Shown one piece after another: positions 25,256 to 28,834 of a stretch of 50,849 bases of DNA. Source of the stretch: Escherichia phage BabyEgg; sequence record PP925846.1; one strand, 5' to 3'. The notes beneath the pieces were generated by a model. That model searched no databases. It was not told where the DNA came from and was given only the letters and a program-made list of their open reading frames with translations. The first letter of the stretch is position 1; each line of letters begins with the position of its first letter. Both the position numbers and the translations under genes were made by a program.

Positions 25256-28200
25256 ATGGCTAAAAATATGATAACTGGCAGTAAGGGCGGGTCGAAAAAA
25301 CCTTACGTGCCTAAAGAGCTTGAAGATAACCTGATTTCAATAAACAAAATTAAAATCCTGCTTGCCGTATCCGATGGTGAGTGTGACGCTGATTTCTCAT
25401 TACGTGATCTGTATCTTGATGATGTTCCGGTTATCGCTGACGACGGAACTGTAAACTACCCAGGCGTTAAAGCAGAGTTTAGGCCAGGAACGCAGGATCA
25501 GGAATACATTCAGGGTTTTACTGACACGTCAAACGAGGTAATCATCAATCGAGATTTGACTACAAATACGCCATATGTTTTGTCGGTAACGAATAAGACG
25601 CTTTCCGCAATACGCATCAAAATGCTAATGCCAGTGGGTATTAAGCAGGAGGATAACGGCGACTTGGTGGGCGTTACCGTTACATATGCAGTTGATATGG
25701 CGGTTGATGGTGATTCATACAAAGAAGTAATGATCGACACCATTAACGGCAAGACGCGCACCGGATACGACCGTAGCCGACGCATTGACTTGCCGAAATT
25801 CAATGAGCGTGTTTTGCTTCGCGTTCGCCGCGTTACGCCTGACAGCACAACGTCGAAGGTTACAGACCTGATCCGCATACAGAGTTACGCCGAGGTAATT
25901 GATGCAAAATTCCGTTACCCTCTGACTGGGCTTGTTTACGTCGAGTTTGACAGCGAACTGTTCCCTAACCAGATCCCTAACATTTCAATTAAAAAGAAAT
26001 GGAAGTTGATTCAGGTTCCCAGCAATTACGATCCTGTATCTCGTCGGTATTCTGGAACATGGGACGGAACATTTAAAAAAGCGTGGTCAAATAATCCGGC
26101 ATGGGTTCTTTACGATTTGGTTACTAATCAGCGTTATGGACTTGATCAACGAGAATTGGGAATACAGATCGACAAGTGGAGTCTATACGAGGCTGGGGTG
26201 TATTGTGATCAGATGGTTCCAGATGGCAAGGGAGGAACAGAGCCGCGCTACCTATGCGATATGGTGATTCAAAGCCAGATTGAGGCTTATCAGCTTATTC
26301 GTGACATTTGCTCAATCTTCCGAGGAATGACTTTTTGGAATGGCGAGAGCTTGTCTGTAGTGGTGGATAAACCGCGCGAGCCATCATACATCTTTACAAA
26401 CGACAACGTAATTAATGGAGATTTTCAGTACACGAGCGCCAGCGAAAAGAGCATGTACACTCAATGCAACGTTACGTTTGACGATGAGCAAAACATGTAT
26501 CAACAGGACGTTGAGGGCGTATTTGACACTGAGGCGGCGTTACGTTTTGGCTACAATCCAACAAGTATCACGGCGATTGGTTGTACCCGTCGAAGCGAAG
26601 CGAATCGACGCGGACGCTGGATACTGAAAACCAACCTGCGCAGCCAAACGGTAAACTTTGCCACCGGGCTGGAAGGGATGATCCCATCTATCGGTGACGT
26701 TATCGCGATTTCTGATAACTTCCTGAGCAGCAACTTAACGCTCAACCTATCAGGGCGCGTAATGGAAGTTTCCGGCTTGCAGGTATTCGTTCCGTTTAAG
26801 ATTGACGCTAGACCAGGTGATTTCATTATCATCAACAGACCGGACGGAAAACCAGTTAAGCGCACAATCTCAAAAGTCAGCGCGGACGGAAAAACCATTG
26901 AGTTAAACGTAGGGTTCGGATTCGACGTAAAACCGGACACCGTATTTGCAATCGACCGAACAGACCTTGCGTTGCAACAGTACGTTGTAACAGGAATCAG
27001 CAAGGGTGACACTGAGGAAGAATTTACCTACTCGATTACGGCGGTTGAATACGATCCTAACAAATACGACGAAATTGATTATGGCGTAAACATTGATGAT
27101 CGTCCGATCTCAATCGTGCAGCCGGACATCATGCAAGCACCGGAAAATGTTCAGGTGTCGTCATACTCCCGTGTTGTCCAGGGTGTTAGCGTTGAGACGA
27201 TGGTTGTGTCGTGGGATAAAGTGCCTTATGCGTCACTCTATGAAATGCAATGGCGAAAAGGTGATGGCAACTGGCTAAATACGCCGCGCACAGCGAACAA
27301 AGAGACGGAAGTAGAAGGAATTTATTCAGGGAACTATCAAGTAAGGGTCAGATCTGTTTCAGCTTCCGGCAGTACATCAGCATGGTCGAAGATTGCAACA
27401 GCTTCCCTGACTGGTAAAGTTGGCGAGCCAGGCGCGCCAGTTAACTTAACCGCATCAGATAATGAAGTTTTCGGCATTCGTATTAAATGGGGCATGCCAG
27501 AAGGAAGCGGAGACACGGCCTACATTGAGCTTCACCAGTCGCCAGACGGAACGGTTGAAAACTCAAGCCTGTTAACGCTGATCCCATACCCGCAATATGA
27601 ATACTGGCACAGTACACTACCAGCGGGTCAGGTTGTCTGGTATAGAATCCGCAGCGTTGACAGAATCGGCAACGTTTCTAGCTGGACTGATTTTGTTCGT
27701 GGCATGGCATCAGATGATGTTGAATCTGTTTTAGGAGATATTCTTGATAAGATTTTTGATAGCGAAGCAGGGCAAGAAATCAAGGAGAACGCCATCGAAA
27801 GCGCGAACAAGATCAAAGACCAGGCGCAGGCAATAATCCAGAACGCTTTGGCGATTGACGCTAACTTGAAATGGACGCGAGTACAGAACGGAAAGCGAAA
27901 GGCTGAATATGGTCATGCTGTTCAGTTGATCGCAAATGAGACTGAGGCGCGAGTAACTCAAATCGAAGAATTGAGGGCTTCAATTGATGGCGAGATAACA
28001 TCAAGCATCAAGACAGTGCAGGAGGCAATCGCCACTGAATCAGAGACACGAGCAACTCAAATTCAGCAGCTTGATTCTAAATTCACAAAAGAAATTGACG
28101 GCGTGCGCAAGGATACTTCTGCAAGCATTAGCGATGTAAGGCAGACAATCACTAACGAGTCAGAAGCGCGAGCGCAAGCGGTACAACAGCTTGATGCAAA

Positions 28201-28834
28201 ATTCACCAAAGAGATTAACGATCTCAATGATGCAATCAAGGTTGACGTTGAGGCCAGCATTTCCGAAGTGAGACAAGCTATCGCCAACGAGGAGGAAGCG
28301 CGAGTACAAGCTGATCAGGCATTAACAGCACGATTTGGAGACGTTGAATCTGCATTGGTTGAAAAGTTGGATTCTTGGGCGAGCGTTGATTCAGTTGGTG
28401 CTAAGTACGCTATGAAACTTGGCCTTACTTACAAAGGACAGCAGTACAGCGCAGGAATGGTAATGCAGCTTTCGCAGGGTTCATCCGGTCTTATCTCGCA
28501 AATTTTGTTTGATGCTAACAGGTTCGCCATTATGACTAGCTCTACTGGAGGGACTTTCACTTTGCCTTTCGTGGTTGAGAATAATCAGGTTTTCATTAAT
28601 AGTCTTTTGGTGAAGAACGGATCAATCACTAATGCTATGATCGGTAATGTTATTCAGTCGAATAACTTTGTTGCTGATCAGCAGGGTTGGAGGCTTGATA
28701 AGAATGGGCGATTTGAGAACTACGGATCTACGTCTGGAGAAGGTGCAATGAAGTTGACCAATGAAACGATAAGCGTACGAGACGCAAACGGGCAATTGCG
28801 CGTTCAGATTGGCAGGCTGACTGGTACTTGGTAA
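25256..28834 (+). CDS. central tail fibre / host specificity protein (lambda J-like)
   Basis: 1192 aa after M-L-K-I; fibronectin-III-like segments (e.g. VVWYRIRSVDRIGNVSSW); C-terminal tandem coiled-coil repeats. Confidence 0.8.
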   Translation: MAKNMITGSKGGSKKPYVPKELEDNLISINKIKILLAVSDGECDADFSLRDLYLDDVPVIADDGTVNYPGVKAEFRPGTQDQEYIQGFTDTSNEVIINRDLTTNTPYVLSVTNKTLSAIRIKMLMPVGIKQEDNGDLVGVTVTYAVDMAVDGDSYKEVMIDTINGKTRTGYDRSRRIDLPKFNERVLLRVRRVTPDSTTSKVTDLIRIQSYAEVIDAKFRYPLTGLVYVEFDSELFPNQIPNISIKKKWKLIQVPSNYDPVSRRYSGTWDGTFKKAWSNNPAWVLYDLVTNQRYGLDQRELGIQIDKWSLYEAGVYCDQMVPDGKGGTEPRYLCDMVIQSQIEAYQLIRDICSIFRGMTFWNGESLSVVVDKPREPSYIFTNDNVINGDFQYTSASEKSMYTQCNVTFDDEQNMYQQDVEGVFDTEAALRFGYNPTSITAIGCTRRSEANRRGRWILKTNLRSQTVNFATGLEGMIPSIGDVIAISDNFLSSNLTLNLSGRVMEVSGLQVFVPFKIDARPGDFIIINRPDGKPVKRTISKVSADGKTIELNVGFGFDVKPDTVFAIDRTDLALQQYVVTGISKGDTEEEFTYSITAVEYDPNKYDEIDYGVNIDDRPISIVQPDIMQAPENVQVSSYSRVVQGVSVETMVVSWDKVPYASLYEMQWRKGDGNWLNTPRTANKETEVEGIYSGNYQVRVRSVSASGSTSAWSKIATASLTGKVGEPGAPVNLTASDNEVFGIRIKWGMPEGSGDTAYIELHQSPDGTVENSSLLTLIPYPQYEYWHSTLPAGQVVWYRIRSVDRIGNVSSWTDFVRGMASDDVESVLGDILDKIFDSEAGQEIKENAIESANKIKDQAQAIIQNALAIDANLKWTRVQNGKRKAEYGHAVQLIANETEARVTQIEELRASIDGEITSSIKTVQEAIATESETRATQIQQLDSKFTKEIDGVRKDTSASISDVRQTITNESEARAQAVQQLDAKFTKEINDLNDAIKVDVEASISEVRQAIANEEEARVQADQALTARFGDVESALVEKLDSWASVDSVGAKYAMKLGLTYKGQQYSAGMVMQLSQGSSGLISQILFDANRFAIMTSSTGGTFTLPFVVENNQVFINSLLVKNGSITNAMIGNVIQSNNFVADQQGWRLDKNGRFENYGSTSGEGAMKLTNETISVRDANGQLRVQIGRLTGTW

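Follow-up and report, generated by a model that had tools for sequence, protein, structure and literature searches.

It has been shown that a 163-residue coiled coil in the central fibre of the F7 pyocin refolds to a triangular beta-prism when the target is bound, whereby the tip is opened, and that placing Gln at the small residues buried only in the prism abolishes killing while assembly is unaffected (PMC12874032, a 2026 preprint). In this fibre each beta strand carries the motif SxSxxMxxLxS, the direction of which alternates from strand to strand, and the same fold switch has been predicted for many siphophage fibres (PMC12874032). Three independent F-type pyocin structures show the corresponding part of the J-like fibre as a three-stranded coiled coil. 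Here we describe a shaft of comparable build in Escherichia phage BabyEgg (sequence record PP925846.1), for which a stretch of 50,849 nucleotides (nt), referred to as the window, was analysed. The gene in question encodes a gpJ-like central tail fibre or tip attachment protein (J; 25256-28834, plus strand, an open reading frame (ORF) of 1192 amino acids (aa)). Close to the C-terminus of J we found four consecutive, diverged repeat units. We see these units as the structural cartridges of a helical shaft, which, by analogy with the F-type pyocins, probably works as a fold-switching spring.

J belongs to the lambda gpJ-like tip attachment or central fibre proteins, as domain content, homology and gene order agree. 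Three Pfam domains were detected, namely FNIII-A_GpJ (aa 92-217), Phage-tail_3 (aa 341-488) and Phage_Tail_Tip (DUF1983; aa 1036-1166, 28361-28753, plus strand, E = 2.9e-39), with scores of 130.8, 83.5 and 134.4 bits that all exceed the curated cut-offs of 27, 23 and 22. The protein gp33 of phage T1 (PDB 9l9p) is a full-length homologue of J (1811 bits). The N-terminal 840-950 aa or so match the F2-pyocin fibre (E = 1.4e-226), the 'J-like tail tip protein gp24' (PDB 23gd; E = 3.6e-200) and lambda gpJ (E = 8.8e-118), and for all three a second region of match lies towards the C-terminal end of J. The entry 9ze4 of the PDB, the tail tip of the podovirus DEV, was considered and rejected. J is located after the tape measure gene and after genes resembling gpM, gpL, gpK and gpI; upstream ORFs encode Prok-JAB plus NlpC/P60 (gpK-like) and Lambda_tail_I (gpI-like) domains, and annotated relatives keep the same order. 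The initial annotation, made from the letters of the sequence, had called the protein a J-like central fibre, and this label was correct because the Pfam domains, the homology to the solved J proteins of T1, the F2 pyocin and lambda, and the gpK-like and gpI-like genes upstream all point to it. At the DNA level, the J gene is 97-99% identical to the tail-fibre genes of the Escherichia phages Jahat_MG145, MatMar, WaterSpirit and BEBK14. Jahat_MG145 and the related PeterMerian are classified as Drexlerviridae, Tempevirinae, Warwickvirus, and the window is the genome of a T1-like siphophage of this group (Drexlerviridae, Warwickvirus).

The repeat units share a common plan, consisting of 11 residues (SxLxxMxxSxS), an NExE turn, 11 residues in mirror order (SxSxxMxxLxS) and a linker of 7-18 residues. 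Their anchor motif, I[AT][NT]E.E.R, is found at aa 892, 925, 965 and 1009 of J, which gives unit spacings of 33, 40 and 44 aa (99, 120 and 132 nt). Together the four units occupy aa 883-1040 (27902-28375, plus strand), and each is matched by a hidden Markov model (HMM) of the unit. The pyocin motif, searched as a regular expression in forward and reverse orientation, occurs in all of them. Unit 1 (27902-28000, aa 883-915, 33 aa; AEYGHAVQLIA-NETE-ARVTQIEELRA-SIDGEIT) has a degenerate first half and a forward motif at aa 898. Unit 2 (28001-28120, aa 916-955, 40 aa; SSIKTVQEAIA-TESE-TRATQIQQLDS-KFTKEIDGVRKDTS) has a reverse motif at aa 916 and a forward motif at aa 931. The same arrangement is seen in unit 3 (28121-28252, aa 956-999, 44 aa; ASISDVRQTIT-NESE-ARAQAVQQLDA-KFTKEINDLNDAIKVDVE), with the reverse motif at aa 956 and the forward motif at aa 971. 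Unit 4 (28253-28375, aa 1000-1040; ASISEVRQAIA-NEEE-ARVQADQALTA-RFGDVESALVEKLDSW) has a reverse motif at aa 1000 and forward motifs at aa 1015 and 1030; as the last unit it abuts the beta tip, and it is the best-conserved unit across the homologues. The top internal local alignment within aa 875-1040 reached a score of 121, compared with 34.6 +/- 5.8 in 200 shuffles (z = 14.9), and the 33-aa unit cores are 33-58% identical to each other at the aa level. The four consecutive copies near the C-terminus of J that the initial annotation had noticed are thus borne out by anchors, spacings and alignment score. Its interval of 27880-28330 does contain repeats, but the units actually lie about 20-45 nt further to the right.

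We consider it well supported that this region is an alpha-helical shaft between the fibronectin type III (FN3) domains and a beta-prism tip. Proline is absent from the 196-residue segment aa 837-1032, in which Ala, Glu, Ile and Gln abound. Hydrophobicity in the units recurs every 3.65 residues (11/3, hendecad-like), and the power of this peak, 115.7, exceeds the shuffle 99th percentile of 87, while the same periodicity analysis gave no 3.65-residue peak in the flanking FN3 and tip regions. A monomer model of aa 819-1192 made with AlphaFold2 (AF2) from a 52-sequence alignment, with a predicted local distance difference test (pLDDT) value of 59, contains helices at aa 837-947 and 956-1023 and a break at aa 948-955, in the linker of unit 2. 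In a cropped monomer model of aa 956-1115 (pLDDT 71), a single helix spans aa 958-1038 at pLDDT 85-91, the range predicted for unit 3, and is followed by a three-strand beta meander (aa 1048-1059, 1062-1075 and 1078-1086). These strands stand at the start of the Phage_Tail_Tip domain and would seed a beta-prism. When the cropped model was compared with the PDB by Foldseek, the top match, which concerned the beta part, was the central fibre of lambda gpJ (8xci), a weak one (E = 1.8e-3, 68 columns, 34% identity). The term 'coiled coil' chosen at first sight is therefore supported by the lack of proline, the periodicity and the predicted helix, and the shaft is presumably trimeric, as in the pyocin fibres. 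Ahead of the units, a proximal helical segment of the shaft (27710-27901, aa 819-882, plus strand) is predicted as helix from aa 837 with low confidence; this segment may be equivalent to the 'spine' of the pyocin fibre, which does not switch (PMC12874032). As a separate observation, the units (27902-28351, aa 883-1032) have a second hydrophobicity peak near 2.1 residues, an alternation of the beta-strand type. With a power of 80 it stays below the shuffle 99th percentile of 87 and is suggestive of a dual alpha/beta amphipathicity while not being significant alone.

The F-type pyocin fibres compared here were the F7 central fibre protein (PMC12874032) and the F2 fibre PyoF10/PA0641 (PDB 25vf; PMC13455828, bioRxiv 10.64898/2026.02.24.707460). 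Like J, these fibres combine a J-like N-terminus, a long helical shaft and a beta-prism tip, and the C-terminal regions are related: the last 363 aa of J match the F2-pyocin fibre with E = 1.2e-16, where the pyocin authors had asked for a BLAST E value below 1e-6. Further common features are the alternating SxSxxMxxLxS motif, pairs of a buried Arg and an acidic residue, and a three-strand beta seed after the shaft. In J a long helix is predicted between the FN3 domains and the beta-prism, the alternating motif occurs together with exposed small residues, and the beta meander predicted directly after the shaft helix corresponds to the non-switching start of the pyocin beta-prism. The eight motif matches named above comprise seven in strict forward and reverse alternation and one extra forward match. 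In 222 aa, 2.5 matches were expected, and a count of eight was reached in 8 of 2000 shuffles. Across 44 non-redundant units, the S positions (1, 11, 16, 18 and 26) are occupied by small residues in 98-100% of cases and are among the least variable columns. On an 11/3 helix they are found 79-150 degrees from the hydrophobic core, that is, on the flanks or the exposed face. Moreover, E13 (98%) and R17 (95%) are conserved and match the described buried acid-Arg pairs or salt bridge. The conservation of exposed small residues is not predicted by a plain coiled coil and fits a sequence that has to serve two folds.

Several points weigh against a fold switch in J. The motif is short and degenerate, and 11 further matches occur in the remaining 970 aa of J. 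The HMM that gathered the units for the conservation profile had itself been seeded on the window protein, which inflates their apparent conservation. When the PDB was searched with the shaft alone and with the profile of 44 unit sequences, only T1 gp33 and no pyocin shaft was found. The link to the fold-switching fibres rests for this reason on the architecture, the C-terminal homology and the degenerate motif. The shaft units of the pyocins are not detectably homologous to those of J in sequence. The pyocin shaft is heptad-based with a stutter, whereas the shaft of J follows an 11/3 pattern, and the pyocin is a DNA-free killing particle and not a phage. A beta-prism state was neither observed nor predicted, both AF2 runs having been made with monomers; since they gave helix only, they cannot address the beta state. 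In the structure of T1, residues 821-1172 of gp33, which form the shaft, were not resolved experimentally (PMC11945409). Finally, according to the pyocin authors, a switch of this kind is not shown by lambda and T5 (PMC12874032). Because of the degenerate motif, the seeding of the units, the lack of a match to pyocin shafts and the restriction to monomer predictions, we treat the fold switch of the J shaft as a reasoned inference from analogy.

The helix-only models and the case of lambda and T5 would suit a static coiled-coil spacer, in which the repeats fix how long and how stiff the fibre is, as a ruler for the tip, the small residues are kept for the packing of the trimer or for contacts with partners, and no switch takes place. 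An extended alpha/beta fibre of about 370 Angstrom, obtained with AlphaFold3 (AF3) in the T1 paper (PMC11945409), agrees with such a spacer, as do discrete classes of shaft length that track the unit count, as expected for a length module. On the other hand, near-invariant small residues 112-150 degrees from the helix core are unexpected in a plain coiled coil, the alternating forward and reverse 11-residue motif fits the published fold-switch pattern, and a three-strand beta seed stands right after the helix, as in switching fibres. We regard the static spacer as the less likely explanation. Our own preference, held with moderate confidence, is a coiled-coil shaft of diverged units that would form a metastable spring, rarely changes its number of units and leaves host specificity to other elements.

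The shaft links the hub and the FN3 domains of J with the distal beta-prism tip, on which the receptor-binding proteins sit. According to the spring model, it would be held in a metastable state as in the central fibres of the F-type pyocins. Once the receptor is bound, every unit would turn into a beta-hairpin, and the coiled coil of about 22 nm would collapse to a short triangular beta-prism, nucleated by the three-strand seed of the tip. With standard values (about 22 nm for approximately 150 helical residues, about 4 nm for eight or nine stacked beta strands), this geometry would shorten the fibre by roughly 18 nm. The collapse would pull the tail toward the membrane and open the tip. The number of units determines the length of the shaft and changes rarely, via in-register unequal recombination or duplication; the copies in the present phage are too diverged for frequent change. 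Host-receptor specificity resides in the extreme C-terminus of J and in a downstream cassette that moves horizontally. So far, the fold switch has been shown only in a pyocin, and it has been proposed as the energy source by which non-contractile tails breach the outer membrane. The anatomy of the units described here, together with natural variants of three to seven units, offers constructs with which shaft length and refolding energy can be tested in infection.

Initially it had also been proposed that the copies are encoded by tandem DNA repeats, which could expand or contract by recombination, alter the length of the fibre and make the region a hotspot for host-range variation. The first part of this proposal mostly did not stand. 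Tandem Repeats Finder, run on 27000-29500 with a minimum score of 30, reported no array and only an unrelated 9-nt repeat, and the reading as a tandem DNA repeat was rejected on this ground. In-register nucleotide identity between the units is 42-65% and the longest common exact run is 10 nt, far from the high identity of adjacent copies that marks recombinogenic tandem repeats. What remains of the proposal are short segments: our repeat search found only stretches of 35-59 nt with 60-84% identity at spacings of 99, 120 and 132 nt. The best conserved of these (84% identity over 37 nt, spacing 120 nt) lies on the plus strand at 28064-28100 in unit 2, where it encodes QQLDSKFTKEI, and at 28184-28220 in unit 3, where it encodes QQLDAKFTKEI. 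With an identity of only 42-65%, exact matches of no more than 10 nt and no array in Tandem Repeats Finder, the copies are an old, diverged repeat at the protein level and not a recombinogenic DNA repeat.

For an active hotspot, in which changes in array length would alter fibre length and host range in current populations of this phage, one would expect copy-number polymorphism among close genomes. Sampled rows were examined from a set of 92 phage records with a coverage of the region of 80% or more and 75-100% identity. In these rows no unit was gained or lost for the shaft type of the window, and the only change in length was a linker variant of +36 nt in three records; the other sampled spans measured 800-801 nt in one piece. 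Records with a three-unit shaft belong to a separate, more distant class only. All protein clusters at least 95% identical to J have a length of 1192 aa. Furthermore, no pair of units is above 85% identity in 137 homologues with at least two units. An active hotspot finds some backing in the gain and loss of units that has occurred in relatives and in the genes for an Erf-like annealing protein and a RecE-like exonuclease beside the tail genes, which could make use of short homologies. Against it stand the divergence of the copies, the constant unit number in the sampled records, the uniform length of the nearest clusters and the assignment of specificity to genes downstream of gpJ, with cassette swaps as the exchanges actually observed. 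We therefore regard it as very unlikely. Tandem-repeat contingency loci likewise differ in their in-frame number of units between relatives and have in-register junctions, but the DNA copies in J are too diverged for slippage or efficient homologous recombination, and the near relatives in the sampled rows do not share the copy-number polymorphism of such loci.

Over evolutionary time the repeat arrays of such fibres do change their number of units. We found no relevant literature on variation in repeat number in J-like fibres, nor on the PDB entry 23gd. To count units, we scanned the 120 protein clusters closest to J (65-100% identical overall) using an HMM built on the 26-aa core. In these clusters, residues 1-818 of J are near-constant in length and the last FN3 domain ends at aa 814-823 in nearly all members. 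The shaft measures 171-182 aa with three units, 214-241 aa with four, 261-282 aa with five, 308 aa with six and 352-356 aa with seven units. A constant number among relatives had been named in advance as a reason to abandon the idea of expansion and contraction; as the number varies, this objection fails. The first and last units keep their positions, whereas the middle units of the 40-aa type multiply. A distant relative of 1922 aa has at least 14 units.

Two cases illustrate how units may be lost or gained. One relative, P0016, lacks exactly 120 nt (40 aa) and otherwise equals the window protein. In its hybrid unit, the beginning comes from unit 2 and the end from unit 3, with the junction inside the segment QQLD-x-KFTKEI, and this indel bears the signature of an in-register unequal crossover. 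In the reference genome of phage T1 (NC_005833; 27809-28010), gp33 contains an exact direct repeat of 103 nt with a period of 99 nt, corresponding to an exact repeat of 35 aa, which duplicates one 33-aa unit. Exactly these 99 nt are missing from Sfin-3 and from some 20 further Tunavirus records (86-93% identity), and Shigella phage vB_SsoS_008 has both copies of the T1-type duplication in a diverged form. Copy-number polymorphism is thus seen elsewhere in the family, between T1 and other Tunavirus members and between P0016 and the window. Recent duplications like that of T1 are rare, because no pair above 85% identity was found in the 137 homologues. Judged from such sequence comparisons, shafts are also exchanged as modules: one relative has identical FN3 domains and a different shaft of three units. 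Expansion and contraction by recombination are consequently documented in relatives and are not active in the phage of the window.

Of the known proteins, T1 gp33 is close to J in having the same architecture of hub, FN3 domains, shaft and Phage_Tail_Tip, a four-unit array with NExE anchors, and two small ORFs and a Cor-like lipoprotein gene downstream. The units of T1 are all 33 aa long, whereas the linkers of units 2 and 3 in the window are 7 and 11 aa longer. Units 2 and 3 of T1 are a near-perfect 99-nt duplication, while their counterparts in the window are 65% identical in DNA. The variation of unit number suggests a modular spring of tunable length, in which reach and stored refolding energy would be adjusted by adding or deleting whole units. 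We offer this view only tentatively and consider it rather improbable as it stands; it cites the three to seven units in close relatives, the minimum of 14 units in the distant relative and the fresh 99-nt duplication of T1. The number of units might be matched to the thickness of the surface layers of the host. The only named homologue with six units in our set comes from a Klebsiella phage.

The linker is the most variable feature of the unit, with spacings of 33, 36, 40, 44, 50 or 57-58 aa in the relatives. This range could be understood if the linkers were docking sites for lateral tail fibres and the units acted as spacers, an explanation compatible with the others. The helix break in the long AF2 model (aa 948-955, DGVRKDTS) contains a Gly, the side fibres of F-type pyocins attach at a Gly-induced kink of the shaft, and the window has a candidate lateral fibre gene at 33850-35826 (minus strand). 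T1, however, shows no density for side fibres (PMC11945409) and has linkers of only 7 aa, and we judge docking at the linkers to be unlikely.

Regarding host range, it has been reported that receptor specificity in these phages is determined by allelic loci for receptor-binding proteins (RBP loci), located directly downstream of gpJ and transferred horizontally (PMC8594841). In the window, a putative receptor-binding cassette (28851-30040, mixed strands) follows J. It consists of two small ORFs on the plus strand (28851-29189, 112 aa, and 29190-29783, 197 aa), for which no significant Pfam match was found, and a lipoprotein gene on the minus strand (29807-30040, 77 aa) with a weak LPAM_1 match of 19.5 bits, just below the cut-off of 20 bits. 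The arrangement is the same as that of gp32, gp31 and Cor (superinfection exclusion) in T1. By analogy, the two small ORFs and the lipoprotein may be the counterparts of the small proteins that, according to the pyocin preprint, bind the tip at the end of the fibre. Lambda gpJ (PDB 8iyk, 8xci, 8xcj) shares with J the homologous hub and FN3 region noted above and the segment of the central straight fibre and Phage_Tail_Tip. It differs in having its own C-terminal receptor-binding domain and no long coiled-coil shaft, which adds about 220 aa in the window. The phage of the window probably delegates receptor binding to separately encoded proteins.

Comparison with PeterMerian (Bas05) revealed a block of 2.8 kb (27200-30000) with 98-100% identity, as against 62-87% for the remaining tail genes. 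The block includes the FN3 domains, shaft, tip, both small ORFs and the lipoprotein gene, and has the look of a host-recognition cassette that was exchanged not long ago. Identity to PeterMerian is also about 99% in the recombination genes at 30600-31845. Jahat_MG145 is 98.4% identical over nt 1-3536 of the J gene and then diverges. More generally, Jahat_MG145, MatMar and BEBK14 match J with 97-98% identity only up to nt 3536 of 3579, and WaterSpirit up to nt 3509. Beyond this point, which corresponds to 28792-28834 in the window, Jahat_MG145 has a different downstream locus with three ORFs on the minus strand (12580-13770 of its contig). The last 14 or so codons of J seem to change together with the type of RBP locus. 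As far as these alignments indicate, the units of exchange are the 2.8-kb cassette and the extreme 3' end of J with the downstream genes, and not the repeats. The suggestion that the repeats drive host range is not supported by these data. For phage engineering this means that retargeting of the receptor in this group should swap the distal cassette and not the repeats. Genes for a RecE-like exonuclease and an Erf-like single-strand annealing protein (30552-32343) adjoin the host-recognition cassette, and these recombinases could promote the short-homology exchanges seen in the region.

Some minor observations concern the surroundings and the annotation of J. Two minus-strand ORFs inside the J gene (28063-28287 and 27731-27961) are without support and were treated as spurious. 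The contig that encodes P0016 contains an HNH_3 endonuclease gene (2447-2923) between the gpI-like gene and J, a position where the window has a gap of only 80 nt. In the record of phage vB_SsoS_008 (327-363 of the region examined), J is annotated as two coding sequences for 'tail fiber protein', split just upstream of the shaft, which could be due to a frameshift or a sequencing error. Finally, in 18 records named 'Campylobacter phage' (A16a, A15b, A118 and others, with C. jejuni given as the host) the J gene is 75-81% identical to that of the window, and this host label looks doubtful on records with a T1-like J.

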